Below are positions 1-27,346 of a DNA stretch of 44,717 nucleotides, piece by piece; the stretch's first letter is position 1, and every line of letters starts with the position of its first letter. The position numbers and the translations under genes are program-made. Source of the DNA: Candidatus Binatia bacterium (GTDB lineage: Bacteria; Desulfobacterota; Binatia; UBA9968); NCBI GenBank assembly GCA_050735075.1, contig JBOHVJ010000165.1, positions 1 to 44,717 of the forward strand, written 5' to 3'. The notes beneath the pieces are model-generated. The model made no database searches and was not told the DNA's origin. It saw only the letters and a list, made by a program, of their open reading frames with translations.

Positions 1-1427
1 CATCAAGGCAGCTTTCTTTTACAATGGACCATCTAGTTCCTATTTTGGGCCCTTTTTTCCAGGCGAGAGTTCTAATCAGGGAAGGTCCAGAAAGAAGTAG
101 AGACGAAAGGGTTTGGTTAGGTAAAGCAAGTGGCATTCGAATCTACGTGGAGGGATTCCGAGTTCTACCTTATGGAGAGCCGAAGGATGACTGGCTCTCC
201 ATTGATGCAGATTATGTAAAGCGCTCCAAAACCTTGCCGTTGCTATCAGACCTAGGTTTTGCCGGAAATCCAGCAGACGAAGAAGAGGGCCTTCAGTTCC
301 TAAGAAAAAATGCTTATTTTGGGGCAGTTTTTCTAACTCTCGCAGGTGCTCCAAAACTCCGCATGATTGTCAATAGAGAAGGGTTCATCCCAGACCAGTC
401 CTATGAGAATCTAGCCCAAGTGGTGAGGACTGCCATCTATCTTTCTGTACGAGTTCGAGCAGCAGCCAAACGAGACCTAAGAGATAAACGGAGCGAAGCT
501 CGGAGAGCTAAGTCTACCAGTAAAGATGATATTCCACGTGTCGAGCTTCGAAAGGCTCTTTCCGACTCGATTAAGATCGCTACTGCACACGCCGACGAGG
601 CGAAAAAGCTCGCTGCTAAGGGTGATTTCGAAGCGGCAAGGAACCGAATCGCTAAGGCAGCCGAGGAATTCTCCGAGACTGCTAGCCTATCTGATCAGCT
701 CCTCAGCGAAGGAGGAATATTACGGGTCCTCGCGTCTGTCGGGATGCAGATGACAGCGTTTGTCCATGAGATAAATAGTCTGCTCGGAGGGACTGCCGAA
801 GTAGAAAGCCACATTGCGGAGATAAGGAAAGACCCGCGCCTGCCCACATCGCTTCGTAGCGAAATGGCCAAACTGCAAGCAGCTATGGGTGACCTGAGGC
901 GCAGTGTGGAGCGACAAGCGTCATACTTGACAGATGTGGTTTCTCCCGATGCAAGGCGGAGACGATCCCGCCAAAGTCTGCACAAACGTTTCGAGTCAGG
1001 AAGAAATCTCGTCGATCACTTAGCACAACGCAGGGGCATCTCTATCTCGAACAAGATTCCAGAGGAGCTTAAATCTCCGCCCATGTTTCCCGCCGAATTG
1101 ACCGTTATCTTCTCAAATTTGTTGACGAATGCAGTTAAGGCTGCCGGTGAAAAAGGTCGCATATTGGCTCATGGTAACCGAGAGGATGATGGAGCAGTTG
1201 TATTACTAGTCGAAAATACAGGCGTTGCCGTAGAACCAGAAGAAGGAGAACATTGGTTCAAGCCCTTTGAGTCAACAACGGTAGAAGCCGATCCGGTTCT
1301 TGGACAGGGCATGGGTATGGGACTACCGATAACCCGCAATATGTTAGAAGAGTACGGAGCGACCATTCGGTTTGCCCGTCCTAGCACCGGTTTTAGTACC
1401 GCTTTGGAGATCAGGTTCGAAGATTGA
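1..1427 (+). CDS. Histidine-kinase-like GHKL ATPase, 5'-partial (reading frame open to the window edge)
   Basis: The frame of the 24..1427 ORF has no stop codon back to nt 3, so the N-terminus is probably outside the window. The C-terminal half carries HK motifs: H-box-like MTAFVHEINSLLGG, N-box IFSNLLTNAVKAAG, G1-like LVENTGVAV and G2 GQGMGMGLPITRNM. No TM segment is visible. The visible N-terminal part (GIRIYVEGFRVLPYGEPKDDWLSIDADY) recalls the middle domain of MORC/HSP90-type GHKL proteins; this is from memory and unverified. Confidence 0.7.
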   Translation, partial: SRQLSFTMDHLVPILGPFFQARVLIREGPERSRDERVWLGKASGIRIYVEGFRVLPYGEPKDDWLSIDADYVKRSKTLPLLSDLGFAGNPADEEEGLQFLRKNAYFGAVFLTLAGAPKLRMIVNREGFIPDQSYENLAQVVRTAIYLSVRVRAAAKRDLRDKRSEARRAKSTSKDDIPRVELRKALSDSIKIATAHADEAKKLAAKGDFEAARNRIAKAAEEFSETASLSDQLLSEGGILRVLASVGMQMTAFVHEINSLLGGTAEVESHIAEIRKDPRLPTSLRSEMAKLQAAMGDLRRSVERQASYLTDVVSPDARRRRSRQSLHKRFESGRNLVDHLAQRRGISISNKIPEELKSPPMFPAELTVIFSNLLTNAVKAAGEKGRILAHGNREDDGAVVLLVENTGVAVEPEEGEHWFKPFESTTVEADPVLGQGMGMGLPITRNMLEEYGATIRFARPSTGFSTALEIRFED

Positions 1428-1433
1428 ATTTAT

Positions 1434-2564
1434 ATGCCAGCAGAGAAGAAGCCTAGGATACTGATCCTTGATGATCACGAGGATGAGATTGTTCTTAAAA
1501 GGCTCAAACGTACTCATGGTCGCGCCAAAGTAAGCGTACTTCATCCTCAAGAGGTCGAGCTTCAAGATTTGCTTGAGGTGAGCCTTGTGTTGGTTGACTA
1601 CCAACTAGACAATTGGTTAGAGCGAGACGAAGCGTCTTCCGTTGCATTGCAGCCACGTGATGGGTTAGCGTTGGTGAGTGTCTTGCGCCGCCAAATCCAC
1701 AGTCAAAGTGATACTCCAGTTGCTTTTGCTATTTTTACGGGTCATATCCAGAAACTTGCAGGACCTCTACCCGATGAGTATAGGCAACATGCTCTCGCAA
1801 GACTGAACAATTTGGAATGGGTTTTTCGAAAAGAAAGAGTTAATGTTACCCAAATTGTTGACCTGGCGGCTGCCGTCATGAAATTGCCGGCCCGGTGGCC
1901 GACGCAACCAGGCAAGCCAATCCGGCAACTCGCAAACCTGCTTGGTATTCAACAAAACGATGACGATGCCGATCTGATATTGCAAGATGTCGAAGCGTGT
2001 CAACCTCCAGTTCACGAACTTTCCGAGTGGTCACACGGTCTAGTTATCTTACGATGGCTGCTTCATAGGATTCTTCCCTATCCGTGTTTTCTTTGGACTA
2101 CCCGGCAGTTAGCTGCCCGGCTGCGAATCGACTACGATGCGCTGCGTGGGCAACTCAACAATAGTAGCCCGCTTTCCGTAAAACTGAACAGTTGCAAGTA
2201 CAATGGAATTCTTTCAGATTTTCTTGGTGCACGTTGGTGGCGTGTAAAAATTGAACGTTTACTATGGCACATTACGAAAGGTAACTCGTCAGATATTGAC
2301 GCGGTACGACATTCAATCAAGAAGATCGCTCGCACCTCTTTGCCTGCAAGTTCCCCCTCAGATCACCCGATAGTGTGCCTCGGTAGTAAGTTTAGGCCTC
2401 TAAGACAATTTTTTTCCATGGATGATGCTGTCCGGATACGCCTAGATGACTGGCCTCCTTATGCGGACCAAGCCTGGACAACCATTGAGTTGGCAAGGGA
2501 ACATCCCCGCCTCCGGGCTCTGGTCGTTGGAGAAGATAGACATAAGCTTGAGACGGCTGACTGA
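1434..2564 (+). CDS. Receiver (REC)-like domain protein with an uncharacterised ~240-aa C-terminal domain
   Basis: The start lies 6 nt after the kinase stop. The N-terminus follows the CheY-fold pattern: RILILDD (beta1 acidic pair), LVLVDYQLD (phospho-acceptor Asp position), DGLALVSVLRR, FAIFTGH (beta4 Thr) and LEWVFRKE (beta5 Lys). I recognise no family in the C-terminal part. Confidence 0.55.
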   Translation: MPAEKKPRILILDDHEDEIVLKRLKRTHGRAKVSVLHPQEVELQDLLEVSLVLVDYQLDNWLERDEASSVALQPRDGLALVSVLRRQIHSQSDTPVAFAIFTGHIQKLAGPLPDEYRQHALARLNNLEWVFRKERVNVTQIVDLAAAVMKLPARWPTQPGKPIRQLANLLGIQQNDDDADLILQDVEACQPPVHELSEWSHGLVILRWLLHRILPYPCFLWTTRQLAARLRIDYDALRGQLNNSSPLSVKLNSCKYNGILSDFLGARWWRVKIERLLWHITKGNSSDIDAVRHSIKKIARTSLPASSPSDHPIVCLGSKFRPLRQFFSMDDAVRIRLDDWPPYADQAWTTIELAREHPRLRALVVGEDRHKLETAD

Positions 2565-2580
2565 TATTCGAGCGAAATAA

Positions 2581-3357
2581 ATGGCATATCAAGGCCTTCA
2601 ATTTTCGTTTGCAGAAATGCATAAGGAAATAGTGAACATGAAAAGGCTCGCTCAGCCATTCCTAGATTCTCGCTCGTTCTACAACGTGATCCCAGAATGG
2701 CAGAGACAGCTGGAGTATTTTGAGCGCGAGCGGCATCCGAGTGGTGCTCAACTTTCGTGGTCGATTTCGGAGAATGATCCTGTCAAAACCGAGTTCAGCG
2801 AGGGCGAATATGAAGCCAAACCCCGAAAAGGCAACTATAAGCTGTACGGGTGTATAAGTGGTGTATGGCAGATCAGTAAGCCTCCTTCGAAGGGCAAAAA
2901 GAAAGCATTCCGAAGTCCATATTTCACACTGCAGGGGCTTGCCTCTACAAAGATAGTGATCTGGACTCCCGGCACTAATGGTGCCGATATAGAACTTGCA
3001 CGTTGGACTCTTGAGGTTGGGGGCGCAGATTCGCCGGGGTGCCATTTTCATACCCAGATCAACCTGGATCATGAAGACCACAAGTTTCCTTCTAATCTTC
3101 CTGTACCCCGCTTACCTGCGGTTTTGGTTACGCCAATGGATGCGCTGGATTTCTTGTTGGCCGAGCTTTTTCACGACACGTGGTATGAACACACTTCCCG
3201 AGAGACTGATCCTGTCAAGCAATGGAGAGTGTGTCAGGGATCTCGTTTGGGTAGCTTGCTTAATTGGCAAGGCCAAAAGATTCGTGAGGCAACCGGCTCG
3301 CCATGGACGACTTTTAAAAGACAAAAGCCATCAGCCAACATATTTTACTCGGGTTGA
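2581..3357 (+). CDS. Hypothetical protein with a His/Asp-rich cluster (SPGCHFHTQINLDHEDHKF)
   Basis: 258-aa ORF, co-directional, 16 nt after the previous stop and 13 nt before the methyltransferase start. No family recognised. The clustered H/D residues suggest a metal-binding site. Confidence 0.45.
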   Translation: MAYQGLQFSFAEMHKEIVNMKRLAQPFLDSRSFYNVIPEWQRQLEYFERERHPSGAQLSWSISENDPVKTEFSEGEYEAKPRKGNYKLYGCISGVWQISKPPSKGKKKAFRSPYFTLQGLASTKIVIWTPGTNGADIELARWTLEVGGADSPGCHFHTQINLDHEDHKFPSNLPVPRLPAVLVTPMDALDFLLAELFHDTWYEHTSRETDPVKQWRVCQGSRLGSLLNWQGQKIREATGSPWTTFKRQKPSANIFYSG

Positions 3358-3370
3358 TACAACCGAACCT

Positions 3371-4828
3371 ATGAAAGTTCCGGCATCGTGTAAGGTCTAC
3401 ACGCCCGCGGATCTGGCCGAGGCGATTGTGCGCGCCCTTGGCGACGAGCCGCAGGTATCGTGGCTCGAGCCGTCGCATGGCACGGGTGTATTTGTTGAGG
3501 CGATTTCACGCTTAGGAGTCCCAAAGGAGAGAGTCGTCGCCGTTGATCTCGACCCGGCAACTTCAGTGGCAGACAGTTTGGCGACGACATTTCGTGGCGT
3601 TGACTTCTTACGCTGGGCCAGCGAGACGGAACAGCGCTTTGATCGTATTGTTGGAAATCCTCCGTTCATTTCGATCAAGCGGTTACCGCCGAGTCTACAG
3701 AAATCGGCTGGTTCGGTCCCGGATATCAACGGTCGGCCCATCGGCCGAGGCTCAAATGTTTGGTACAGTTTCGTGCTCGCTTCCCTTCGTTTGCTGAAGC
3801 AAGGTGGCTGTCTTGCGTTTGTGTTACCTTCGGCTGCCGAATTCGCAAATTATTCAGTCGCTATACGGCGGGCGGTGCGGGAAACCTTTAGCAGCTTAGA
3901 ACTGTACCGCTGCGAGCGCCCCCTCTTTGAGAACGTTCAAGAAGGCACACTGGTTGCGGTTGCGCGTGGCTATAACGCTCCCCCATGCAAGGTGAGTCGA
4001 AAGCATTTTGAAACACGCGAAGGTCTAATACAGGGACTATCGCAGAGCGGTAGCCGCAACGGCCATAAATGTCCATCTGGCACTGTGCGATCTGCTATCT
4101 CGATGGTCACATTGGACGCAGTCGCCGAGGTTCGGCTTGGCGGCGTGACGGGCGACGTCTCCTACTTTCTTATGACGGAGGAGAGGCGAAAGGCTCTTGA
4201 GCTTCCCACGGCCGCGCTTACGCCGGTTGTCTCAAAGGCGAGACATCTTCAGTCTGCCTATCTGGACCGGAAGGACTGGAACAAGCTTAAGTCATCAGGC
4301 GAACGCATTTGGCTCTTTAGTCCTTCTATGCAAGTGGCGAAACGTCCGAAGGTGAGGGACTACTTAGACCTCGACGCCATCGAAGGCGGCTGCACTCGCG
4401 AAGCGTACAAGGTGTCGATTCGAGAGCCTTGGTATCGTACGCCAATGCCCAAAAACGCTGATGCCTTCTTGAGCGGAATGAGTCAACACGGACCATGGCT
4501 CTGCATCAACGAAATGCGGCGTTTGAACGCGACAAACACGCTTTACGTCGTGACTTTTCGGAATCGGAACCAAAAGATATGGTACATGTGGGCTCTGGCG
4601 TTACTTTCCTCAGTAGCTCAGCGACAAATTCGCCGCCTGGGTCGTCAGTATGCCGACGGTCTAATCAAGTATGAGCCGGGACCTCTTTCGAAAATCAAGC
4701 TGCCTGAACTTAAGCGAGACGTTGACTATAGGTCGCTCTACATACGAGCAGTGGATGCTCTTCTCGATGGAGATCGCGCGATGGCGAAGGATATCGCGGA
4801 CTCTGCTCTGTTGTCATCGTCAGCGTAA
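3371..4828 (+). CDS. N6-adenine DNA methyltransferase, gamma-class (TaqI/Eco57I-like motif order)
   Basis: Motif I is LEPSHGTGVFVEA, followed by the acidic VAVDLD and catalytic motif IV IVGNPPFIS (NPPF), then a long C-terminal target-recognition region. I chose the internal ATG at 3371 (MKVPASCKVYTPADLA...). The longer 2996 start overlaps the preceding ORF and adds non-homologous sequence. Confidence 0.8.
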   Translation: MKVPASCKVYTPADLAEAIVRALGDEPQVSWLEPSHGTGVFVEAISRLGVPKERVVAVDLDPATSVADSLATTFRGVDFLRWASETEQRFDRIVGNPPFISIKRLPPSLQKSAGSVPDINGRPIGRGSNVWYSFVLASLRLLKQGGCLAFVLPSAAEFANYSVAIRRAVRETFSSLELYRCERPLFENVQEGTLVAVARGYNAPPCKVSRKHFETREGLIQGLSQSGSRNGHKCPSGTVRSAISMVTLDAVAEVRLGGVTGDVSYFLMTEERRKALELPTAALTPVVSKARHLQSAYLDRKDWNKLKSSGERIWLFSPSMQVAKRPKVRDYLDLDAIEGGCTREAYKVSIREPWYRTPMPKNADAFLSGMSQHGPWLCINEMRRLNATNTLYVVTFRNRNQKIWYMWALALLSSVAQRQIRRLGRQYADGLIKYEPGPLSKIKLPELKRDVDYRSLYIRAVDALLDGDRAMAKDIADSALLSSSA

Positions 4829-4923
4829 GCTGATCGCTAACAACGAAGGCAAAGCGAGGAGCCGGCAACTGCAGGAGCATTGCGGTTGTGTCTAGGCCTC
4901 CGCCGAATTGAAAGCCTCGAACA

Positions 4924-5787
4924 ATGAGCAAACCATATCTTTTTCACCTCAAAACTGCCGCCGACCTCGAAACGACAAACGAAGCCGTCCGCGCCGGCTT
5001 TGTCGCATTAGCTCTGGAGAAGAACCGTCGCGCGACGCCTTACGTCGAGCAGGCGCGCGCACTGAAGCACGCTGCGTCACAGGCTAAACACCCCTTCGAC
5101 CTTCTGGAAATCCCTGGACTCCAATCGGCGCTTGTACCGGTGTCAGGTGTGAACTTCGTTGAAGAACTTGTATTCCGTTTCTTACTTACTCGCGGCGATA
5201 CTCTTGGTGGATCAATGCGGAATATTGGCGGCTTTATGGCGCAGAAAAAACTTACCCGCTCGATTATCGCCCACCTGAGGTTGGCCGGAAAAACAGGCAA
5301 ATGGCTCCATTCCGAAACCAACGTCTGGGCAGACTTGCCGGAAGATGACGCAGATATTGAGCTCCATCTACGCGGCCTTTGCTGGGAGTTACGGGGAAAA
5401 CCCCGGTCGCTTGTCTACAACCTCACCGTCCCTTTTTTCCGAAACAATGTTGATTTTTCCTTGTTCAACTGTAGCGCAGAAGATCTGGGCCGTGACACAT
5501 ACAAGAAACCTAGTTCATACATTGCTCTAGGAGAATTGAAAGGGGGGATTGATCCGGCTGGCGCGGACGAGCATTGGAAGACGGCCCGGACGGCACTGGA
5601 TCGAATTCATAAGGCCTTCGCCAAACACAAGGTCAAACCCCACACCTTTTTCATCGGCGCGGCAATTGAGGCGAAAATGGCCGCTGAAATCTGGAACTTG
5701 CTGAAGCAAGGGGTCTTGGAAAACGCTGCCAATTTGACTGATGAAGACCAGATTGCTTCTATAACACGCTGGCTTTGTGGCCTGTGA
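4924..5787 (+). CDS. Putative type II restriction endonuclease (PD-(D/E)XK-like), partner of the upstream methyltransferase
   Basis: 287-aa ORF, 95 nt downstream of the MTase on the same strand. It has a candidate PD-(D/E)XK arrangement: NNVDFSLF ... ALGELKGG (D ... E-x-K). The call rests mainly on context. A possible XamI/SalI-family relationship is only a vague recollection. Confidence 0.45.
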
Positions 5788-5872
5788 GCGAACCGCGGGG
5801 TTCTTTCACCAAAAACTCGAACAGTAACCTATGTTTTCTTAGTAGATGCCAGGCCACAACAATTACTTCTGA

Positions 5873-6421
5873 CTAGTCGCCTTTGATCTTATTGTTTTTG
5901 ACATAGTAATCAAAAAGCTCCTTCAGCTTAGTGTGTCTGTTCTCTATTTGGTACTTCTCCCCCGGAGCGTTACTCAAATAAGATTGAAAAACGTAGAGGT
6001 CCTCGTTCGATCGCTTGATGCCAGCTCTAGCTTCCTCCTTTAGCCGTTGCAGGAGCTTAGTAACAAAATCAACGAACTTCTTCATAGATTTGCCTCTCTC
6101 CTGCTTTGATCCCATGTCGTAGTTCTCATCAGCGAACAGGTCCCTGTAAGGAGGTCTCCGATGCCAGGCTTGCGTTGTTGGAAGGGACAAAAGGTACCGG
6201 GAGTCCTTTCTGTCTCCTTCTAGCGCGCACCAGGTTCGGTATACATCGTAGGTGGTGGACTCCTCAGTGCTTGTCGGCAATCGTACCTTTCCAACGTCAT
6301 TGACAAGTCCTTGAAAACCAAGGAGACTCTGCACATTCGCTGGAAGTTCGGCAACAGAAATATGCTGACCAGCTTTAGTCAATAGTTTGGCAGCGCATAC
6401 AGTATTTCCATTTGTCACCAT
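5873..6421 (-). CDS. Hypothetical protein (182 aa, K/E-rich C-terminus)
   Basis: Clean ORF convergent with the endonuclease gene. No recognisable motifs. Confidence 0.4.
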   Translation of the reverse strand: MVTNGNTVCAAKLLTKAGQHISVAELPANVQSLLGFQGLVNDVGKVRLPTSTEESTTYDVYRTWCALEGDRKDSRYLLSLPTTQAWHRRPPYRDLFADENYDMGSKQERGKSMKKFVDFVTKLLQRLKEEARAGIKRSNEDLYVFQSYLSNAPGEKYQIENRHTKLKELFDYYVKNNKIKGD

Positions 6422-6653
6422 GATTCAGGCGGGAGATTATGTGATATTTGAGACTTTGCCGCCGTGGGTGTCTGAACTTCCCGAGGAGAGTCAGCAAGTC
6501 TTTCGTTTCTGTCTTGGTCGCAGCTATCGTGTGGACGAGATTGACGAGCAGGGCTTGCTGGTATTGGATGTCAGCGCCGACATCGACCGAAGATTTGGTG
6601 GCTTCATGAACGATATCCGCTTGGAGCCCCAGTATGTGAGGAAGCCTGTGTGA
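6420..6653 (+). CDS. Small hypothetical protein (77 aa from MIQAGDYV...)
   Basis: The ORF runs 6387..6653. The first ATG is at 6420 and shares the tetranucleotide CATG (6419-6422) with the start codon of the divergent ORF 5873..6421. No family recognised. Confidence 0.3.
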   Translation: MIQAGDYVIFETLPPWVSELPEESQQVFRFCLGRSYRVDEIDEQGLLVLDVSADIDRRFGGFMNDIRLEPQYVRKPV

Positions 6654-7983: not shown

Positions 7984-8033
7984 CTGCGCTTCAGACAGAT
8001 CGATTGTCAGCGACGGCTGAGCTTAGATTAGGC
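7984..8033. repeat. Left copy of an imperfect ~50-bp direct repeat
   Basis: CTGCGCTTCAGACAGATCGATTGTCAGCGACGGCTGAGCTTAGATTAGGC aligns with 8742-8793 (CTGCGCTTAAGACCGGTCGCTTAGCACCGACAGCTGAGCTTGGGCATCAGGC). A hand alignment gives about 33 of the first 41 positions identical. Confidence 0.7.
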
Positions 8034-8336
8034 TGCTTTTCGTCCCTGCTTCGGAGACGCTAAAGAGACTTTGACCCGAACGCCTGCGCAAGCGAGCATG
8101 CTGACCAGGGTATCAATACTGAATATATCAATTTTACCTCTGACCAAGTCGCTGATCCGGGGCTGCGTTACCTTAAAAAGATCTGCGGCCTGAGCTTGCG
8201 TCAGACCTCGGGATTCAATTAGCTTACGAAGGTGAGCCATCAGATGGGAACGGATCTTGAGGTGCTCTGCCTCTTCGGCAGAGAAGCCCAGATCCTTGAA
8301 CACGTTCCCGCTTGAGCGGGTTACTTTAATGCGCAT
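8028..8336 (-). CDS. higA: XRE-family HTH antitoxin (HigA/Gp48-like)
   Basis: GNVFKDLGF...LTQAQAADLFKVTQPRISDLVRGKIDIFSIDTLVSML is the typical antitoxin partner of Gp49/HigB toxins. AAGGAG lies upstream of the ATG, inside the toxin's 3' end. Confidence 0.8.
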   Translation of the reverse strand: MRIKVTRSSGNVFKDLGFSAEEAEHLKIRSHLMAHLRKLIESRGLTQAQAADLFKVTQPRISDLVRGKIDIFSIDTLVSMLACAGVRVKVSLASPKQGRKAA

Positions 8337-8347
8337 GGGTTGTCTCC

Positions 8348-8682
8348 TTACTTAGCCCGTCGCATCAGAATCACTTCTCGCAGGCGGCGTTTAGCCAACT
8401 CTATCTCTCGCTTTGGAGTCTTGCGGGTCTTTTTCTGGAACGCGTGCAAGACATAAATGCCTTCGCTGAACTTGGCAATGTAGAAACCCGGTGCTCAAGC
8501 CCCGTGTGGATCCGAAGCTCAGCCGCGCCGGGACCGATGCTTGGCATCGGCTTCCAGTCTGCTGGGTCTAGGCCGAGTTGCACAAGATGGAGCTGGTGTC
8601 CGGCTATGCGTCGGGCGTTCTTAGGAAACGCTCTGAGGTCGTTGAGAGACGATCCGACCCAGAAGACCGGTTTCTCAGCCAC
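8348..8682 (-). pseudogene. higB: Gp49/HigB-like RelE-superfamily toxin with a 1-nt frameshift
   Basis: The GTG-start ORF reads MAEKPVFWVGSSLNDLRAFPKNARRIAGHQLHLVQLGLDPADWKPMPSIGPGAAELRIHTGLEHRV and then leaves the family. The +1 frame continues FYIAKFSEGIYVLHAFQKKTRKTPKREIELAKRRLREVILMRRAK and stops at 8348, which is the canonical C-terminus. The shift sits at the T-run (plus-strand AAA at 8484-8486). Confidence 0.75.
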
Positions 8683-10028: not shown

Positions 10029-11240
10029 TTACCAGTCCGTGTGCACCTCTCTGCCGCTCAGCTCCGCAAGGATTTTTTCTGGCTTAAAAGTTTTGCCGTC
10101 GAGTCTATCTTTGAGCCAGTTTACAATAATCGTCCGGGCCCGCGGGTTGCGAATAGAGTGTTTTTCCCCTTCGTATACCACTAAAAGTTTGGGCCCGCGG
10201 ATCTCATCCATTAATTGATGAACAAACTCAATCGGGCAAAGCTCGTCGTCTTCGCCCGCAACGATAAGGTAGGGGCAGGTTACTTTTGAGCCCAGCCCTT
10301 TCAGGGTCAAGGTCTTGGCGAATTCGTCAAAGGCCGCCTCATCGTCATATCCCGCCATATACATATAGTTGAGCTTGAAGGTAGGCGAGGCGGTATTGAA
10401 GATCGAGTATTGTCCCGGTTCGACACAGACTCCGCTCACGGCGCAGGCCTTAAAGCGGGGTTCAGCAGAAGCGACCCTCGTGCCCCAGTAAGAACCCATG
10501 CTGGAGCCGAAGATGGCCAGCCTGTTGGCGTCGATCTCGGCGCGTTTTGAGAGATACTCGCATGCTGCCTTTCCTGCATCTTCATAGTTCGACGCAGTAC
10601 ATTTAATGCCTCTAGACCTAGCCTCTCCCTGTCCTGGACCGTCAATGGAGAGAAGGGCTACCCCCCGCTCCAGAAATGGATCGCTGTGCAAAGGCGTGTC
10701 CTCTTTGACCCCGTCCATGCCCGGGATAGAAAGGACGCAAGGGAATTTTTCCCCTGGGTTTCTTCGCGGAGGCAAGTGAAGCAGCGCCGGAAGGGACTTT
10801 CCTTCGAAGGGCAGCTCCACGCGCTCAATAGGTCGGTTGGCGAACTGGATGAATTTGTCGTAGCAGGCCCTCTTCCTTTCCCCCCATGCGATCCTCTTGG
10901 GGTTTTCATCCTCGTAGATCGCCCACTGCGCATTGGTGTAAAAGGTCGCCGCGACGTAATAGTGCTCGCCGGCCTCTACCTCGTGTCCAGCCTTTTCCGA
11001 GACCGATGCCAGCTCCTCCCGGCGTTGAGCCGCCCGGGAAAACTCCCGCGGGATGTCCATAAATTTCTGCACCCTCCGGCCAATCTCCTGAAGCTCGCCG
11101 GCCACGCTTGGGCCACAGTTGCGTAAGACCTTGCCCGTCCGGCCTTGATCCCAATCAAGACCTCTTGTTTGGATCACCTGATCGAGGAGCCATCTCTGCT
11201 CCCGCCAGCGCCTCATCTTTCTCTCAGTCTCAACTCGCAT
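10029..11240 (-). CDS. Alpha/beta-fold hydrolase (DHPON-hydrolase/dienelactone-hydrolase-like)
   Basis: Nucleophile elbow GSSMGSYWG, preceded by a helical N-terminal domain. I chose the start at ATG 11240 (MRVETERK...) with GGAGGTG 5-6 nt upstream. The ORF-track start at 11300 is 20 codons longer. Confidence 0.7.
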   Translation of the reverse strand: MRVETERKMRRWREQRWLLDQVIQTRGLDWDQGRTGKVLRNCGPSVAGELQEIGRRVQKFMDIPREFSRAAQRREELASVSEKAGHEVEAGEHYYVAATFYTNAQWAIYEDENPKRIAWGERKRACYDKFIQFANRPIERVELPFEGKSLPALLHLPPRRNPGEKFPCVLSIPGMDGVKEDTPLHSDPFLERGVALLSIDGPGQGEARSRGIKCTASNYEDAGKAACEYLSKRAEIDANRLAIFGSSMGSYWGTRVASAEPRFKACAVSGVCVEPGQYSIFNTASPTFKLNYMYMAGYDDEAAFDEFAKTLTLKGLGSKVTCPYLIVAGEDDELCPIEFVHQLMDEIRGPKLLVVYEGEKHSIRNPRARTIIVNWLKDRLDGKTFKPEKILAELSGREVHTDW

Positions 11241-11618
11241 AAAGCACCTCCTTGTATCAGGCCCATTAACTTCGCCTGACCTCCTTGCGGCGTGCTGCAA
11301 TAATCAATGAAGTAAAAGTTGCCTTGGTGAGCTAGACTGTAGACAAAATGAATTAGGATGGCAATGGGGACCATGGACAGAAATAGTTGACCCCCTTTGT
11401 AGGAGGGACTCCACTAGTGGGCTTCCATCGTCAAAGATCCAAGATCCGCGTCACATTCGGGACCGATGACTAACAACACGATCTTCCACCTAGAGTTAGT
11501 TGAGGCTGCAACAAGGTCGGGAAAGACCTCCAATTTCTGCTTGACTTCCATCCTTAGAATCCAATAGCGTTGGGGCAGGCGAATTCCTATCATTTTTCAT
11601 TAGAGGAGGATTTCAACC

Positions 11619-12788
11619 ATGGTAATGCTAGGCACCGACATGAAGGTTGCCGAGACCCCGAAGGAGGGCCTCGAAGAGTACAGGACAGCCGACGCCTACG
11701 AGGCGTGGCTGAAGAAGGAAGGTGTGAAAGTCTATGAGGAGTTCTACTTCCCGAGCCTTTCGGAGCTCGAGCTGGGGCCGTGGCCCCGTAAGGGGGGCGA
11801 CGGCGCAGTCATCCACATCGCCAGCCGCCATATGCCCAACGACTGTCACGTGGTCGAGATCAGGCCTGGGGGCAAGTCCGAGCCGGAGCACCATATGTAC
11901 GAGCTCACGATCTATGTGGTCTCGGGCCGCGGTGGAACGACGATCTGGCAAGATGAGAAGGATGAGAAGCGCAAGCGGACTTTCGAGTGGCACGCCGGAA
12001 GCCTCTTTTGCATTCCGCTCAACGCCTGGTACCAGAACTTCAACGGCAGCGGCCACGAGCCTGCCCGCTACATCGCCGTGACCAACGCGCCCCCCATGAT
12101 GCGCCTGTTCCGGGACCACGATTTCATATTCAACACCGATTTCAAGTTCCGCTCCCGCTACGCGGGCGAGGAGGACTACTTCAGCGGTAAGGGCAAGCTC
12201 TTCAAGCGGCGGATATGGCAGTCCAACTTCATCGCCAACGCGCCGGACATGCTCTTGTACGGCTGGAAGGAGCGGGGCGCCGGCGGCATCAACGCGATGC
12301 TGGAGATGGGCGACAACAACATGAAGAGCCACATGTCCGAGTTCCCCCTAGGCACATACAAGAAAGCCCATCGCCATGGCCCGGGCGCGCACCTGGTGTT
12401 GCTCAGCGGCAGCGGAGGCTACTCTTTGGTCTGGACCAAGGAGGACCGCTCCGACATGATCAAGTGCGATTGGCAGCTCGGGTCCATGGTCACCGTCCCT
12501 AGCGACAACTGCTTCCACCAGCACTTCAACACCGGGACCAATCGGGCCCGCTATCTGGCGCTGCGGTCGGGCGATATGGGCGTCAACTCGCCCCGGGGCG
12601 GCGGCGGGGAGTACGCGGACCGGAGCATGAAGGAGGGCGGCTGGCAGATCGAGTACGAGGACGAAGACCGCGACATCCACGAGCTCTTCGAGAAGGAGCT
12701 CGCGGCCCACGGCGCAACGTGCAGGATGAAGACGTTCGTCCCCTGGTGCAGCGGCGAGGTGGGACCGACGAGCGAGCGAGATACCTAG
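11619..12788 (+). CDS. Bicupin protein (gentisate-dioxygenase-like fold)
   Basis: Two cupin motifs are present: PGGKSEPEHHMYELTIYVVSGRG and KAHRHGPGAHLVLLSGSGG. AGGAGG lies upstream of the ATG. The gene is GC-rich. Confidence 0.65.
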   Translation: MVMLGTDMKVAETPKEGLEEYRTADAYEAWLKKEGVKVYEEFYFPSLSELELGPWPRKGGDGAVIHIASRHMPNDCHVVEIRPGGKSEPEHHMYELTIYVVSGRGGTTIWQDEKDEKRKRTFEWHAGSLFCIPLNAWYQNFNGSGHEPARYIAVTNAPPMMRLFRDHDFIFNTDFKFRSRYAGEEDYFSGKGKLFKRRIWQSNFIANAPDMLLYGWKERGAGGINAMLEMGDNNMKSHMSEFPLGTYKKAHRHGPGAHLVLLSGSGGYSLVWTKEDRSDMIKCDWQLGSMVTVPSDNCFHQHFNTGTNRARYLALRSGDMGVNSPRGGGGEYADRSMKEGGWQIEYEDEDRDIHELFEKELAAHGATCRMKTFVPWCSGEVGPTSERDT

Positions 12789-12814
12789 GGTGCAATTCGC
12801 CGTTGGCCTCCGAA

Positions 12815-12859
12815 GCGTTTAAGTCGTTCAAATCGTTCAAATCGTTCAAGCCGTTCAAG
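12815..12859. repeat. Tandem repeat of 5 x 9 bp (consensus TCGTTCAAR)
   Basis: GCGTTTAAG TCGTTCAAA TCGTTCAAA TCGTTCAAG CCGTTCAAG, in the convergent intergenic region. Confidence 0.9.
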
Positions 12860-12943
12860 GGGTCTTCTCTCGCCCCCGTCTTTGCGAGACACGAGCTAAC
12901 CGTTGAATGCAAAGTTCCTGACCTTGCTGGCGAAACTTCCACG

Positions 12944-12961
12944 TTTTCGGAATTCCGAAAA
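12944..12961. repeat. Perfect 18-bp palindrome TTTTCGGAATTCCGAAAA
   Basis: Read directly. It lies between the convergent genes at 11619..12788 (+) and 13069..15099 (-). Confidence 0.9.
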
Positions 12962-13068
12962 TGAGAAAATGTCGCTACGGAGCTGTGGAGAGGTAAAAAG
13001 TTGAAGAGTACGAGAAGAAATTCGCAGAGTGGGAAACTCTAATGCGGCAGCTCAGGAGATGTTAGGGC

Positions 13069-15099
13069 TCAGAGGAGGTTGCGCTTTACGCGGCGCTCCC
13101 AGGTGCGCGCGAAGAGCTGTTTTTGACCTTCGTATGCTGTGAGTTCAGCCTGCAGCAGGAACTGGTCTTGGGTCGAGGAAAAGCGAGTGTGCGTCTCAAC
13201 GCGGATCTTCCATGCGCCGCGGCGAAACAGGGTCTTCTGCATGACCTCGGCACGAGCCGACAGCGGATCCTCTTCGCGGATGCGAAAGCGCTTGAGCGTC
13301 GTATGCCCGACCTCGAGATCGATCGCCTCGATGTGTGCCAGCGCCTCGCCGTCGAAGTCGCCGCGACCGCTGGAGATGGTGTAGGTCGTTTCGTTGGTGG
13401 CGCGGTCACGCTCGATGATTCGCTTCAAGGGAGCGGGTCGAAGCTCGGTTGTCTCTGTTGGCGCGCGCTCGGGCGGTTCGAATGGCCTGAGTTCGGCGTC
13501 TCTCGGGTCCGGCGGTCGTACGGGAAGATCGACAAAGCTCTCGCCGGTAAAGAGGCTTACCATCGCAGGCTGCGGCGCCGGCCAGGCGATCGGCCAGTAA
13601 CTGGTGGAAATGGCAAGTCGCAGGGTGTGGCCTGTGGGAAATGCGTGCGCGGTATCGTTCATGGCCACGCGTACCCGGTAGCGCTTGCCCGGCTCCAACG
13701 GCTCAGGATGCTCGTGGCCGTTGCGGTGCGCGAGGTTAAGTAGCCCGTAGGTCACCCGGGTGGAGGCTCCGTCAGGGGCGACGTCGTTGAGGCGGACGGC
13801 GATAAGGGCGACGAGCTGGTTGGCCGCAAGCTCCAGCGTCGCCACCGGCGCACCCAGAATTTCCATCCGTTCCCGGAGCGGCTCCGAGTCAAACGTCAAC
13901 GAACAACCGTCGTCACCCCGCTGGTCTGGTGGCGCTTCTCCCGGCGTGCCGAACCCGCACCACTCGCCGGCGCTGAGCCCTGTCGTCTCAGGCGAGCGGA
14001 AGTCAAGCCGTGTTTTGAGGCTCGCGGAGCTGCTCAGCCGATCAGGATCGAGCCAATAACGCTTCAGCGTGATGCGCGGCGAGGGCCATTCCGTTTCTGC
14101 CGCCCAGCGGCCGGGGCGCTCTTCATAAAAAGGTCTCGGCGGGACGCTTTCCTGCATCCAGACGCGTAGCATAGGCTCCTCCATAATGCCGGTGTCGACG
14201 CCCTTCAACCAGTGATCCCACCAGCGCAGCGCCTCCTGCAGGAACCCGATGGCGGGACCGGGCACGCCGTCGTGCGGATAGAGGTGGGCCCAGGGGCCGA
14301 TGAGGCCTTTGCGCGGGGCCTTGAGGCCGGCCAGCAGCCGGGGAATCGCGTTGGTGTAAGCATCGGCCCAGCCGCTCATCGCATAGACCGGGCAGGTGAT
14401 GGCGCTGTAGTCCTCGCACACTGAGCCGTGCTTCCAGTAATCGTCGCGCCGGGGATGTCTGAGCCACAGTTCGGGAAAAAAGACGGCGTGCTCGAGACGG
14501 TTGAGCCACATGGCGCGCCAGCGCTCTCCGACCAGCTCGGGATCCGGCGGATAGGCGTTGTAGCTCATCAGCACCGAGCCCCAGGTCAGGTTTTCGTTCA
14601 GCAGGCAACCGCCCATGTAGTGCACGTCGTCGGCGTAGCGGTCGTCCGTGGAGCAGACGGTGATGATCGCCTTGAGTTCGGGCGGCCCGCGCGCCGCTAC
14701 TTGCAATGAGTTAAATCCGCCCCAGGATTTGCCCATCATGCCGATAGCGCCGCTGCACCACGGTTGTCCCGCGATCCAGCGGATCACGTCCAGCGCATCG
14801 TCCTGCTCTTGTCGCAAGTATTCGTCCAGCAAAAGGCCGTACGAATCGCCAGAGCCTCTGAGGTCCACGCGCACGGCGGCATATCCATGGCCGGCGAAGT
14901 AGTGGTGCATGGGTTCGTCCCGCGCACGCGTGAAGTCACGCTTGCGGTACGGGATGTATTCCAGGATCGCCGGTACCGGGGTCGTCTCCGCGTCGGCCGG
15001 CAGCCAGATGCGCGCGGCCAGACGACAACCGTCTGGCATTGGGATCCAGCAGTTTTCAATCACGCGCACGGCGTGGGGAAACCGCTCAACGATCTTCAT
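13069..15099 (-). CDS. CocE/NonD-family hydrolase (X-Pro dipeptidyl-peptidase S15-like)
   Basis: MPDGCRLAARIWLP...PAILEYIPYRKRD...VRVDLRGSGDSYG...MMGKSWGG (GxSxGG nucleophile), 676 aa. Confidence 0.8.
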   Translation of the reverse strand: MKIVERFPHAVRVIENCWIPMPDGCRLAARIWLPADAETTPVPAILEYIPYRKRDFTRARDEPMHHYFAGHGYAAVRVDLRGSGDSYGLLLDEYLRQEQDDALDVIRWIAGQPWCSGAIGMMGKSWGGFNSLQVAARGPPELKAIITVCSTDDRYADDVHYMGGCLLNENLTWGSVLMSYNAYPPDPELVGERWRAMWLNRLEHAVFFPELWLRHPRRDDYWKHGSVCEDYSAITCPVYAMSGWADAYTNAIPRLLAGLKAPRKGLIGPWAHLYPHDGVPGPAIGFLQEALRWWDHWLKGVDTGIMEEPMLRVWMQESVPPRPFYEERPGRWAAETEWPSPRITLKRYWLDPDRLSSSASLKTRLDFRSPETTGLSAGEWCGFGTPGEAPPDQRGDDGCSLTFDSEPLRERMEILGAPVATLELAANQLVALIAVRLNDVAPDGASTRVTYGLLNLAHRNGHEHPEPLEPGKRYRVRVAMNDTAHAFPTGHTLRLAISTSYWPIAWPAPQPAMVSLFTGESFVDLPVRPPDPRDAELRPFEPPERAPTETTELRPAPLKRIIERDRATNETTYTISSGRGDFDGEALAHIEAIDLEVGHTTLKRFRIREEDPLSARAEVMQKTLFRRGAWKIRVETHTRFSSTQDQFLLQAELTAYEGQKQLFARTWERRVKRNLL

Positions 15100-19234: not shown

Positions 19235-20383
19235 ATGGCTATGAGCAAGGCTGTTCGCGCCGAAAGCGAAGTTTTTCATACGGAAGATATGACCATCAGC
19301 ATGGGTCCGCAGCACCCGAGCACCCATGGGGTGCTGCGCTTCGTCGTTAAGACCGATGGCGAAGTCATACGTGAGGCCATTCCGGATGTCGGTTACCTGC
19401 ACCGTTCCATAGAGAAGATTGGCGAGAAGGTAACCTGGCATGGATTTGTCCCTTATACGGATCGTGCTGACTACCTGGCGGCGATGTTTGCCAATCAAGG
19501 CTTCTGCATGGCTGCGGAAAGGCTTGGAGGTATCGAAGTGACCCGGCGTGGCGAGTTTTGCCGCGTGATCGCCTGTGAGCTGAACCGGATCGCCAGCCAC
19601 CTCATCTCCGTGGGGACCTTTGGCCAGGATATCGGGGCCATCACACCCTTCCTCCACGCGCTCAGGGAAAGAGAGACTATTAATGATCTAATGGAAATGA
19701 TATGTGGCGCGAGGCTCACATACAATTATATTAGGATCGGTGGGGTGGGCTACGACCTTACTGTGGAGACGTGCGATCGTATTACCCAGTTCCTCGATCA
19801 CTTTGAGCGCATCCTCGATGAATACAACCGTCTGATCTCTTACAACAAGATCTTTGTAGAGCGGCTGGCCCATGTGGCTCCCATCACCAAGGAGGATGCC
19901 TTTCAGTATAACATCGTAGGACCAAACCTCCGCGCCTGCGGGATCAAATGGGATATCCGGAGGGACATCCCTTACTCGGTTTATCCCGAGCTCGATTTCG
20001 ATGTGCCGGTAGGAACCGGGGAAAAGGGGACTTTGGGGGATTGCTACGATCGATATATGGTCCGCATCTTGGAGATGCAGGAGAGTTGCAAGATCCTGCG
20101 CCAATGTCTCAGGATGATGCCCGAGGGTCCAGCCATCGCCAAGGTGGCGCGCAAGTTCAAGCCCCCAGCCGGCGAGGTCTATGTACGGATTGAGAGTTCC
20201 CGTGGCGACATGGGCTTCTACGTTCTCAGCGACGGGAGCGAGTATCCTTATCGCGTACGGATTCGCACAGGTTCCTTCACCGCCATGAGCCTGGTGGACA
20301 AGATCAGTCGAGGCCTCATGGTCGCCGATCTTATCGCCCTCATCGCCAGCCTGGATGTGGATGCGCCGGAGATCGACCGGTAG
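19235..20383 (+). CDS. nuoD: NADH-quinone oxidoreductase subunit D (cluster 1)
   Basis: [13 protein letters not shown] ... GYLHRSIEK ... the C-terminus ends ...DVDAPEIDR. Confidence 0.92.
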
Positions 20384-20397
20384 GTCAAGAGGAACCC

Positions 20398-21585
20398 ATG
20401 CAAGCTTTCATCGATCAACTCATCCAAGAAGGGTACTTTCAGAGGGTGCCCAGAGAGCTCGTCTATGCGGGCTCTATGGTCCTCGTGGCCTTTGTCGTCC
20501 TCTCTTTTTTTGTCGCTCCCCTGGCTGGAGTTACGAGCTGGTTGGAAAGGAGGGTTTGGGGGAGGATGCAGTCGCGGGTTGGACCCAATCGGGTAGGGCC
20601 TCAGGGGATCCTCCAGTGGCTTGCGGACGGAATCAAGAATTTGCTTAAAGAGGATATCATTCCTACGGCTGCGGATAAGCGGCTCTTTGCCCTTGCCCCC
20701 TATATCGTCTTCATCGGCTTCTTGGCCGCCTTTGTCGTGATCCCTTTCGGCAGTCAGCTCATCGTAGCTGACCTCAACATCGGGATTTTTTATCTCCTCG
20801 CTGTGACCTCTCTGGTTGTGGTCGGCATCTTGATGGCGGGTTGGTCCTCCAATAACAAGTGGTCTCTCCTGGGAGGCATGCGTTCTGCGGCGCAGATTGT
20901 CAGTTATGAAATCCCTGCAGGGCTTGCCATCTTAACCATCATTTTCGTGGCCGGGACCATGAGCATGCAGGGAATTATCAAAGCCCAAGGCTGGGCCCCT
21001 TGGGACTGGTATCTCTTCTATAATCCCTTTACCTTTATCGCCTTTTTCCTTTACTTCACTGCGGCCTTGGCCGAGGGTAACCGTACGCCGTTTGACATCC
21101 CGGAGGCGGAATCCGAGCTTGTGGCCGGCTATGTCACCGAATACAGCGGGATGCGTTTCCTCTTCTTCTTCTTTGCCGAATGGGGGAACCTCTATGTCAT
21201 TGGCGCGGTGGCGACAACCCTTTTCTTGGGTGGTTGGCAGATCCCCCCGATACCGGATTATCCGGTTCTGGAGGGCATCCTTCAGTTCATCGTTTTCTTC
21301 TTGAAGGCCTATCTCTGGGTGTTTGTGGCCATGTGGGTTAGAGGGACTCTTCCTAGGGTTAGGGTCGATCAGTTGATGTCCCTTTGCTGGAAGTACATGG
21401 TTCCTCTTTCCTTTATCTGCCTCTTGGGGACGGCGGCGTGGATGGTAATCTGGCCGCAGGGCAACCGGGTGGCAAGCATGGCCATGTTCCTCATAGGTCT
21501 AGTGATCCTGGCTCTGTTCTTCAAGCGGGTGAACTATCAGATCCGTCATGCGCGCCCGATCCTTTACCTGAAACCCTATATTTAA
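20398..21585 (+). CDS. nuoH: NADH-quinone oxidoreductase subunit H (cluster 1); directly follows nuoD
   Basis: ERRVWGRMQSRVGPNRVGPQGILQ and EAESELVAGYVTEYSGMRF. It has a longer than usual N-terminus. Confidence 0.9.
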   Translation: MQAFIDQLIQEGYFQRVPRELVYAGSMVLVAFVVLSFFVAPLAGVTSWLERRVWGRMQSRVGPNRVGPQGILQWLADGIKNLLKEDIIPTAADKRLFALAPYIVFIGFLAAFVVIPFGSQLIVADLNIGIFYLLAVTSLVVVGILMAGWSSNNKWSLLGGMRSAAQIVSYEIPAGLAILTIIFVAGTMSMQGIIKAQGWAPWDWYLFYNPFTFIAFFLYFTAALAEGNRTPFDIPEAESELVAGYVTEYSGMRFLFFFFAEWGNLYVIGAVATTLFLGGWQIPPIPDYPVLEGILQFIVFFLKAYLWVFVAMWVRGTLPRVRVDQLMSLCWKYMVPLSFICLLGTAAWMVIWPQGNRVASMAMFLIGLVILALFFKRVNYQIRHARPILYLKPYI

Positions 21586-21609
21586 TAATAACTGATCATT
21601 CGAGGGCCT

Positions 21610-22179
21610 ATGCGCGAGCTAATCGGATATATCAAGAATATTATGGAGACGGTCGCAACGATCTTTGAGGGAATGGCCATTACCTTCTCCCATCTTGTGC
21701 GGCGTCCGATGACGATCCAGTATCCGGATCGAATAGAGAAACCGGTTCAGGAGACACTGCCTCTTAGGTACCGGGGGATACTGGAAGTGGATATGGATAT
21801 CTGTACGGGCTGCCTTGCCTGTGAGAGGGTCTGCCCGATTACTTGTATCACCATCGGCATCGAAATGAACAAAGAGACTAAGCAGCGTGCGTTCACGCAC
21901 TTTGATATTGATATCTGTAAATGCATGTACTGTGGCCTCTGTGCAGAGGTTTGCCCGACAGGATCGATTCGCCATTCTCAGGAGTTCGAAGGGGCTTGTT
22001 ATAATCCGGCGGGTTTGGTTCGGCATTTTGTCACCGAACCGGTTTTGCTCTATAAGCCCAAAAAGGGCGGCGAGACTGACCCCAGATTGGTTACGAAGGT
22101 TGAGGTGGGGCTGAAATATCTGGATGAATTTGCTACCCCAGAAGGAAAGGCAGGAGGAGCTGGCGCAGAGGAGGGGTAG
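21610..22179 (+). CDS. nuoI: NADH-quinone oxidoreductase subunit I (2 x [4Fe-4S])
   Basis: CTGCLACERVCP and CMYCGLCAEVCP. Confidence 0.9.
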   Translation: MRELIGYIKNIMETVATIFEGMAITFSHLVRRPMTIQYPDRIEKPVQETLPLRYRGILEVDMDICTGCLACERVCPITCITIGIEMNKETKQRAFTHFDIDICKCMYCGLCAEVCPTGSIRHSQEFEGACYNPAGLVRHFVTEPVLLYKPKKGGETDPRLVTKVEVGLKYLDEFATPEGKAGGAGAEEG

Positions 22180-22248
22180 GGGGAATCTTCCTGTTATTGA
22201 CCCAAAGGGCCTTCGGCTTTTTGGGGTCCCAAAGAGAGATAGAACGTC

Positions 22249-22749: not shown

Positions 22750-22751
22750 CA

Positions 22752-22921
22752 GACCGTTGAAAAAGGCCCATATGCTTCGTGACAGGGTGTTGAAAAACCT
22801 TTTCCATATGGTCATTCTGAGCGAAGCGAAGAATCTCACTCGAAGAAAAACAATGGGTTATGAGATTCTTCGTCGCCTGCGGCTCCTCAGAATGACTGGT
22901 ACTGTGAGTTTTTCAACGGTC
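22752..22921. repeat. Nested palindromic (REP/MITE-like) element in the nuoJ-nuoK spacer
   Basis: The outer inverted repeat is GACCGTTGAAAAA (22752-22764) / TTTTTCAACGGTC (22909-22921). The inner long hairpin is GTCATTCTGAGCGAAGCGAAGAATCTCA (22811-22838) / TGAGATTCTTCGTCG...CTCAGAATGAC (22861-22896). Confidence 0.8.
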
Positions 22922-22950
22922 GCATCGAAGTCTGACAGGGGGGACGCTTG

Positions 22951-23259: not shown

Positions 23260-23377
23260 TTAAAGGGATCAAGGGATAAAGGGGGCAGACAATTTTGGAT
23301 TGCCGATTTTGGATTAGTCTAAAATCAAAAATCTAGCCAAAGATATTTGAAATTTTGCTGGGCCTCTTGAAAAACCT

Positions 23378-23662: not shown

Positions 23663-23682
23663 GCCGCAGGCGCAAGGGTTAA

Positions 23683-27340: not shown

Positions 27341-27346
27341 GAAGCC

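Follow-up and report, generated by a model that had tools for sequence, protein, structure and literature searches.

A predicted MORC-kinase, receiver, and adenine methylase cassette in 'Candidatus Binatia', a distant relative of the Ambrosia phage defense system

Ambrosia (AbrR-AbrA-AbrB-AbrC-AbrD) is a validated anti-phage system of Pseudomonas aeruginosa with a reported distribution limited to Gammaproteobacteria; its XRE regulator, N6 methylase, Hsp90-like/histidine-kinase ATPase, receiver protein, and HNH endonuclease are all needed for phage defense (van den Berg et al., bioRxiv 10.1101/2025.09.30.679545). Phage defense was lost in AbrB N40A, AbrC D60A, methylase, and HNH mutants, reporters replacing abrA or abrD were barely expressed until infection, and AbrA methylation gave phage no protection (bioRxiv 10.1101/2025.09.30.679545). 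Cassettes joining a two-component system to restriction-modification (R-M)-like genes were predicted in 2021, with HATPase_c_3 + HATPase_c kinases, and tied to paraMORC ATPases (Bellieny-Rabelo et al., PMC8011034); the predicted pair consists of a HATPase_c_3 + HEF_HK (PF19191) + HATPase_c kinase and a Response_reg_2 (PF19192) receiver, and the Pectobacterium histidine kinase-like and response regulator-like genes were first noticed through their induction during plant infection. Here we describe a gene cassette at positions 1-4828 of a 44,717-bp stretch (the window) that is the entire contig of a 'Candidatus Binatia' metagenome-assembled genome. Sequence comparison places this cassette as a distant, undescribed relative of Ambrosia, on an undescribed branch of a superfamily of paired MORC-kinases and receivers. 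The initial annotation had proposed an undescribed defense architecture; that claim falls, as the kind was predicted in 2021 (PMC8011034) and one example was validated in 2025 (bioRxiv 10.1101/2025.09.30.679545). What appears to be new is the branch itself, with two conserved protein domains whose confident structural models have no structural relatives.

The locus consists of five co-directional open reading frames (ORFs), a four-gene cassette (g1 to g4) followed by a BsoBI-family endonuclease gene (g5), at the following coordinates:

3..1427, + strand: g1, kinase gene, 474 codons visible, frame open up to base 3
1434..2564, + strand: g2, receiver protein gene, 376 aa
2581..3357, + strand: g3, 258 aa
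3371..4828, + strand: g4, methylase gene, 485 aa, start ATG at 3371
4924..5787, + strand: g5, endonuclease gene, 287 aa
5781-5799, + strand: terminator-like stem-loop at the end of g5, a consensus match only

The tight packing described for the first four ORFs was borne out, with spacers of exactly 6 nt (g1/g2), 16 nt (g2/g3), and 13 nt (g3/g4). A consensus scan found no promoter-like or terminator-like site in these three junctions, and the stem-loop at 5781-5799 is the sole terminator-like site where the gene series ends.

The features of g1 are those of a soluble histidine kinase with a second ATPase module upstream:

132-197, + strand: S5/transducer-like motif GIRIYVEGFRVLPYGEPKDDWL
759-785, + strand: H-box FVHEINSLL, with the His255 codon at 765-767 (H540 in the full-length protein)
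1110-1142, + strand: N box
1209-1232, + strand: G1 box
1302-1325, + strand: G2 box

The H-box and the N, G1, and G2 boxes had been recognized initially and stand; the visible length had been given as 467 aa, counted from an ATG at 24, and becomes 474 codons with the frame open to base 3. Because the window is the whole contig, the N terminus of g1 was inferred from homologues; an exact look-up of g2 returned only a 2.4-kb Logan contig. More than 1,400 g1 homologues (cluster representatives) are ~760 aa long and carry an N-terminal PF13589 domain (HATPase_c_3, of the MORC/MutL/paraMORC type), and the closest full-length homologue (P0001) is 96% identical to g1, with PF13589 at residues 24-140 and PF02518 at 650-750. 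The domain order in full-length homologues is an N-terminal MORC/MutL-type GHKL ATPase, a DHp domain with the H-box, and the kinase ATPase domain. On this comparison g1 is assigned as the 3' part of a ~760-aa MORC-like-ATPase/histidine-kinase fusion, and its stretch upstream of the H-box is predicted to be the back half of the second, N-terminal ATPase. This agrees with the earlier observation that the input region has no transmembrane segment and does not look like PAS, GAF, or HAMP. The C terminus matches HATPase_c (9.5e-14), its DHp and catalytic domains align with ZraS (9jfj), and we assign it by homology as a class I histidine kinase core. Across 30 full-length homologues, conservation is at least 97% for the Bergerat Asn/Asp motif, the S5-like RVLPYG..DW motif, the H-box His, and the kinase G boxes, and both ATPase modules keep their Bergerat motifs at that level.

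The link to Ambrosia is carried by this kinase. Using the Ambrosia sequences in Table S1 of bioRxiv 10.1101/2025.09.30.679545, we found that the first 400 residues of AbrB match 29 kinases of the g1 family at E values of 3e-25 to 3e-11 (~26% identity over ~430 columns), in an alignment that includes the S5-like RVxPYG..DW and NREG motifs, and match the g1 fragment at 1.7e-5 on the overlapping part. The similarity of AbrA to the cassette methylases is remote (best E value, 5.5e-5); the Ambrosia authors' own hidden Markov model cut-offs are 100, 500, 150, and 200 bits for AbrA, AbrB, AbrC, and AbrD, respectively. Both systems keep in one cluster an N6-type methylase, a soluble HATPase_c_3 + HATPase_c kinase of ~750 aa, a receiver with a phospho-acceptor Asp, and a small fourth protein, and actinobacterial and Paraburkholderia variants of the cassette share the Ambrosia order of methylase, kinase, receiver, and fourth gene. 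They differ in that g2 (376 aa) carries an extra conserved 226-aa domain whereas AbrC has only 209 aa, that AbrD is an HNH nuclease whereas g3 has no HNH match, and that the XRE/HipB-like regulator AbrR heads the Ambrosia cluster whereas no conserved XRE gene lies beside the cassette. The cassette family spans seven or more other phyla. A defense role is likely, given that the kinase is homologous to AbrB.

To compare gene content, we retrieved 37 independent loci from an alignment of g2 relatives and compared their ORFs by tblastn and all-against-all clustering. These loci come from about eight phyla, among them Acidobacteriota, Planctomycetota, Verrucomicrobiota, Chloroflexota, Actinomycetota, Armatimonadota, and Proteobacteria. 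The g1-g2 pair was found in every locus whose contig reaches that far, the order g1-g2-g3 is invariant, and the gene in the fourth-component slot, held here by g3, always lies directly after g2. Of the 37 loci, 33 have a g4-family methylase and two more have degraded copies, as expected from the initial proposal that kinase, receiver, unknown gene, and methylase form one unit. This methylase usually lies directly downstream on the same strand, with 36-63% identity to g4. Six loci have it downstream in convergent orientation, and therefore with its own promoter, and in five it lies upstream. The same proposal had coupled the signaling genes to an R-M pair, of which only the methylase half survives: no homologue of g5 occurs in any of the 37 loci, and a Blastocatellia locus (L006) has a g4 homologue of 63% identity in a cassette without any endonuclease. 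Since the methylase recurs with g1-g3 and g5 does not, we consider the methylase an integral, and the endonuclease a window-specific, component on this comparative evidence. No other gene is conserved within ±10 kb of the cassette in the 37 loci.

The suggested check of gene-neighborhood conservation thus found g1-g2-g3 and the methylase recurring in otherwise unrelated surroundings. The nearest flanks are heterogeneous, with integrases, ResIII helicases, BrxL/PglZ, DrmB, a type IV restriction enzyme, or a relaxase at some loci, and copies are plasmid-borne in Rhizobium, Clavibacter, and Hymenobacter; this distribution, together with a lower G+C content of g1-g3 (0.49) than of the rest of the contig (0.54), points to a horizontally mobile cassette. 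In three Acidobacteriota/Cellvibrionales loci, g1-g3 share 48-62% identity with those of the window but the methylase only 26-28%, which indicates exchange of the modification module. More distant plasmid variants with the theme of kinase, receiver, small protein, and methylase occur in Paraburkholderia, Mycolicibacterium, Hymenobacter, and a haloarchaeon; the similarity of their receiver proteins to g2 is confined to residues ~205-280, and their fourth proteins are mutually unrelated. The sequences suggest a picture in which a MORC-kinase and a receiver form the chassis of the superfamily while the modification and fourth-gene modules are exchangeable. The window has no sequence upstream of g1; in the related loci, none of 45 small flanking ORFs matched HTH_3 or HTH_31 as an XRE regulator would, and a helix-turn-helix gene at the cassette head was seen only in the distant Paraburkholderia variant. 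No 8-mer that could mark an upstream operator is shared across the cassettes, a test made weak by their divergence.

Several individual loci have features of their own. A GIY-YIG nuclease follows the g3 homologue on a Rhizobium plasmid (L039, 11118-12047), a Piwi-domain protein and a large methyltransferase adjoin the cassette on a Hymenobacter plasmid (L041, 213-5850), and a Solirubrobacteraceae locus encodes a 1,089-aa methylase fusion (L019, 6090-9359). One locus (L024) is the sole complete one without a recognizable cassette methylase; it has two co-directional genes after g3 (11902-14094), the first with an N-terminal WNPxxGC...GCxxCYAE pattern that we take to be that of DUF5131 (Gp37/Gp68-like) proteins. 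Among the flanking ORFs surveyed, one matched DUF5131 at 2e-97. This gene pair may be an alternative DNA modification module. In two further loci (L036 and L037) the cassette is degraded, with the kinase in fragments and the methylase broken up over several ORFs, which suggests decay in some lineages or assembly errors.

The methylase g4 matches the Eco57I, N6_Mtase, and TaqI families and is classed by these matches as a gamma-class (TaqI/Eco57I-like) DNA methyltransferase with predicted N6-adenine specificity, as had been read from its NPPF motif:

3467-3493, + strand: g4 motif I, EPSHGTGVF
3656-3667, + strand: g4 motif IV, NPPF

Homologues align from residues 1-10 of g4, matching the start ATG at 3371, and NPP[YF] is kept in 33 of 33 cassette methylases. 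PADLOC matches to g4 were MTase_II (1.3e-60), mad2 (3.4e-13), and DrmMI (5e-3). We ruled out an M.AvaI/M.BsoBI-type enzyme (m4C, SPPY), since g4 is unrelated to the methylases that lie beside BsoBI-family enzymes, both on plasmids and in ~70 metagenome loci.

The receiver protein g2 is modular, and most of its length is a domain of no assigned family:

residues ~1-150, + strand: g2 receiver domain
1470-1475, + strand: g2 D13/D14
1596-1598, + strand: codon of the g2 phospho-acceptor D55
T102 and K133: g2 receiver residues
~1884-2561 (residues ~150-376), + strand: g2 C-terminal domain, 226 aa, basic, very conserved
1998-2039, + strand: g2 C-terminal motif CQPPVHELSEWSHG
2049-2096, + strand: g2 C-terminal motif LRWLLHRILPYPCFLW
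2232-2243, + strand: g2 C-terminal motif RWWR
2445-2483, + strand: g2 C-terminal motif DDWPPYADQAWTT

The AlphaFold2 model of g2 has a predicted local distance difference test (pLDDT) score of 89.9, and a Foldseek search of the PDB matched receivers only (CheY, CpxR, and ArcA; target TM score, ~0.65). The alignment of homologues shows D13, D14, and D55 to be invariant and K133 to be nearly invariant. The receiver assignment made initially is upheld by both fold and residues, and on the model g2 is classed as an atypical response regulator with a true receiver fold. The pair thus shows the classical two-component hallmarks, an H-box His within DHp and N/G1/G2 boxes in g1 and the Asp-Asp, Asp, Thr/Ser, and Lys residues in g2, and we predict His-Asp phosphotransfer from g1 to g2. 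The C-terminal domain has an isoelectric point (pI) of 9.0 and many invariant Trp, Cys, His, and Asp residues; it has no family in Pfam, NCBIfam, PADLOC, or PHROGs and none in PDB profile searches. Residues ~205-280, the segment common to the receiver proteins of distant variants, include a helix-helix-helix-hairpin stretch in the model (~223-268) that could be a winged helix. The g2 family comprises about 870 cluster representatives, and no g2 homologue was found among 50,697 phage records.

Two conserved motifs mark g3:

3031-3051, + strand: g3 motif SPGCHFH, invariant
3103-3117, + strand: g3 motif VPRLP, with PRxP invariant

The initial reading of g3 as unrecognizable persists: it has no family in Pfam, NCBIfam, PADLOC, or PHROGs, no sequence relative in the PDB, and no Foldseek neighbor. 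Its AlphaFold2 model is confident (pLDDT, 86; predicted TM score, 0.86), with the secondary-structure order beta-alpha-alpha-beta7-alpha. A full-library profile search returned 548 representative homologues, and among the 150 matches listed all are stand-alone proteins without domain fusions. Directly after g2, a g3-type gene is present in 32 of the 37 loci and a different protein of ~210 aa, with no homology found to g3, in 5 actinobacterial loci; the ~210-aa protein is also encoded by the Clavibacter plasmid copy. Ambrosia has an HNH protein in this slot, and the variants of Paraburkholderia, Mycolicibacterium, and Hymenobacter have still other dark proteins there. Such exchange of the fourth gene between lineages is the pattern expected of an effector module. 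We note that the ~210-aa protein (L029, L031, L033, L034, and L035, at about 11150-11900; L040, 10526-11107) has acidic motifs (DTGPL, GEAE, HDxD, and a C-terminal D) that give it a PIN-nuclease-like look; we do not claim it as a PIN nuclease on motifs read by eye and a nonsignificant PDB match (1o4w; E value, 0.93).

The cassette can be set against several other described systems. Like the HEF_HK/Response_reg_2 pairs, it places an atypical receiver lacking known output domains next to a soluble kinase built of HATPase_c_3, a DHp in which an acidic residue follows the His, and HATPase_c, and both are overrepresented near DNA methylases and restriction genes. However, those pairs are linked mainly to C5-cytosine methylases, Vsr, and HNH_2, and the cassette to gamma-class NPP[YF] methylases and g3; PF19191 and PF19192 were absent from Pfam scans of g1, P0001, and g2 (g2 at E values up to 10) and from the precomputed Pfam lists of 240 homologues. 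The paraMORC/MORC ATPases of R-M systems share the N-terminal PF13589 GHKL domain, the S5/transducer-like motif, and a methylase-linked mobile cluster, but there the ATPase couples to a partner helicase or nuclease directly (Iyer, Abhiman & Aravind 2008, PMC2292703). The MORC-like module of the cassette is instead fused to a complete DHp and kinase ATPase core and paired with a receiver, so its output would be His-Asp phosphotransfer.

PADLOC (PADLOC-DB 2.0.0, whose Detocs model content is unverified) gave nothing significant on g1-g3, the best match being PDC-M43B on g1 at an E value of 0.047, and none of the signature proteins of MADS, BREX, or DISARM (mad1, mad3-8; PglZ, BrxC; DrmA, DrmB) or of Tiamat was found by PADLOC on the cassette proteins. 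Detocs consists of the kinase DtcA, the buffer receiver DtcB, and the receiver-PNP effector DtcC. The two share a cytoplasmic histidine kinase signaling to a receiver protein, with a proposed antiviral logic, but the cassette has a single receiver gene (the only one in 1-6500), no PNP or other nucleoside-degrading effector, an integral methylase, and a MORC-like kinase input. The distinction from Detocs that was drawn at the outset is therefore maintained.

The downstream gene g5 had been called a putative endonuclease, and it belongs to the AvaI/BsoBI family (PF09194 at 6.6e-125; 4.7e-93 against the BsoBI structure 1DC1, with 55-60% identity by eye). It has in common with the AvaI/BsoBI type II R-M systems (CYCGRG) its family membership and conserved catalytic Asp/Glu/Lys, the residues aligned to BsoBI D212, E240, and K242, but it is a short form of 287 aa without ~25 residues equivalent to BsoBI 81-103, and the neighboring methylase g4 is of the gamma-class NPPF type rather than the canonical SPPY type. 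We compared g5 with 80 metagenomic relatives (L047-L053, short form; L054-L126, full length). The full-length forms (~317 aa, 58-71% identity to g5) have an SPPY-type methylase upstream in ~70 of 73 loci, whereas the seven closest relatives (287 aa, 85-90% identity) have none upstream and, where sequence is available, show an arrangement of methylase, 292-aa protein, and endonuclease. The NPPF methylase in this arrangement is homologous over its full length to the cassette methylases (24-32% identity; E values down to 3e-60). As short-form relatives pair with a g4-family methylase and the window has no SPPY-type methylase, g4 is the probable protector against g5, and on this evidence the cassette appears to have acquired a conventional restriction arm in this genome. 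The 292-aa middle protein (L049, L052, and L053) is unannotated and has a DIVV...ISVKG motif. The AvaI/BsoBI site CYCGRG is mildly depleted in the window, with 51 occurrences against 71 ± 8 expected from 100 dinucleotide shuffles, all of which had at least 51 matches.

We hypothesize, and think it probable, that positions 1-4828 encode a mobile four-gene, methylation-linked defense cassette of the Ambrosia-like kind with the BsoBI-type g5 attached. In this proposal g4 would methylate a specific adenine-containing site on host DNA and be the sole sequence-specific reader in the cassette. The g1 protein would act as a soluble sensor whose N-terminal MORC/MutL GHKL + S5 module forms an ATP-driven clamp like those of the R-M-associated paraMORCs, and invading or unmodified DNA, or an infection cue, would lead to autophosphorylation of the H-box His by the C-terminal kinase ATPase. 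The phosphoryl group would pass to Asp55 of g2, whose C-terminal domain would then act on DNA, either autoinducing the operon or recruiting and activating g3, the likely executor of interference. Conventional restriction would be added by g5, probably using g4 as its protecting methylase.

A number of observations weigh against this proposal. No nuclease or other effector fold is recognizable in g2 or g3; Foldseek found no match for the g3 model in the PDB (best E value, 0.2) or BFVD (best E value, 0.06), and on that model the layout of g3 is not that of PD-(D/E)xK or HNH enzymes. That the g2 C-terminal domain probably binds DNA is a reading of its secondary structure and pI rather than a match to a known domain. 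AbrC gave no BLAST match to g2 (hhalign probability, 0.4%), AbrD has no similarity to g3 or to the actinobacterial fourth protein, and g3 has no HNH Pfam match; with no homology detectable between AbrC/AbrD and g2/g3, the Ambrosia data transfer by analogy only. That AbrA methylation is nonprotective argues against simple self-marking in Ambrosia. The N terminus of g1 is missing, cut by the contig end, and many cassette loci, this window included, lie amid housekeeping genes.

The main rival is a purely transcriptional model of the Ambrosia type, which we judge unlikely but deserving of real weight. Here g1 and g2 would be an ordinary two-component switch with transcription as the sole output: on infection, phosphorylated g2 would bind the promoter of the cassette and induce the methylase and g3, and methylation would tag DNA as a target, with a type IV-like logic, instead of as self. 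The Ambrosia authors proposed this model for their system, where reporters are barely active until infection and methylation does not protect (bioRxiv 10.1101/2025.09.30.679545), and the basic g2 C-terminal domain, with its possible winged helix at ~223-268 inside the segment (~205-280) common to distant-variant receivers, would suit a transcriptional output. However, g1, g2, g3, and usually g4 form one tight operon with 6- to 16-nt spacers and no internal promoter, so that sensor and output could not be expressed separately except by autoinduction of the whole operon, which is possible. The six loci with a convergent, separately transcribed methylase, the lack of a conserved XRE co-regulator, and the failure to find a conserved upstream motif (a weak test, given divergence) also speak against it, as does the g2 C-terminal domain, which at 226 aa, with many invariant residues, greatly exceeds a simple winged helix-turn-helix in both size and conservation.

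A more specific version of the defense proposal, which we regard as rather unlikely, would have the MORC clamp as the input of a relay triggered directly by whether DNA is methylated or foreign, as sensed by way of g4, with the g2 C-terminal domain and g3, both of unseen fold, effecting a nuclease-independent restriction or one by a new nuclease.

We consider it improbable that the cassette is instead a mobile module for epigenetic regulation, with a cytoplasmic two-component system governing an orphan adenine methylase and so altering host expression under stress. A four-gene core without a recognizable nuclease, the housekeeping surroundings of many loci, and the induction of the related Pectobacterium genes during plant infection (PMC8011034) would fit such a role. 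Yet the distribution is patchy across phyla with variable insertion sites and plasmid carriage, the fourth gene and methylase are swapped between lineages as in defense systems, the kinase is homologous to a component needed for phage defense, and restriction nucleases have been recruited alongside (BsoBI here and GIY-YIG in Rhizobium). Chance adjacency of an ordinary two-component system and a hypothetical gene to an independent type II R-M pair is very hard to credit. In its favor, g4 and g5 alone could be a working pair and g4 has a higher G+C content than g1-g3 (0.55 versus 0.49), but g4 homologues of 36-63% identity lie directly after g3 in most of the 37 loci, g5 lies in none, and the L006 methylase, 63% identical to g4, belongs to a cassette without an endonuclease.

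The remainder of the window consists of housekeeping genes, with a few features of separate interest. A 182-aa ORF convergent with g5 (5873-6421, - strand) has no family match apart from a single sub-threshold one to Tox-REase-9 (E value, 0.046) and no homologue among related cassette loci. A toxin-antitoxin-like pair 2.2 kb from the cassette (8028-8682, - strand) consists of a Gp49/HigB-like protein (8401-8682; PF05973, 3e-5) and an HTH_37/XRE antitoxin-like protein (8028-8336; 1e-22). Complex I (nuo) genes form two separate sets (19235-28825 and 40992-44690) with two NuoD (49-kDa subunit) paralogues (19235-20383 and 41585-42775). A 240-aa ORF adjoining the GroEL gene (37991-38713, + strand) matches the Y2 transposase family (PF04986, 4e-23) and may be an IS91-type remnant.

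Bacterial immunity that couples two-component phosphorelays to DNA methylation has come to be recognized only very recently, with one validated example confined to Gammaproteobacteria. Our analysis indicates that the same MORC-kinase chassis is spread over many soil and aquatic phyla, in families of >1,400 kinase, ~870 receiver, and ~550 g3 cluster representatives. It provides a second, independent lineage in which to ask what the MORC-like ATPase senses, why a His-Asp relay is placed between sensing and restriction, and what the exchangeable fourth component does. The short form of g5 looks like a documented switch of methylase partner, and possibly of specificity, inside a classical restriction enzyme family. 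If the rather unlikely DNA-sensing version were true, the cassette would be a two-component pathway of immunity that senses DNA and reaches across at least seven or eight phyla.

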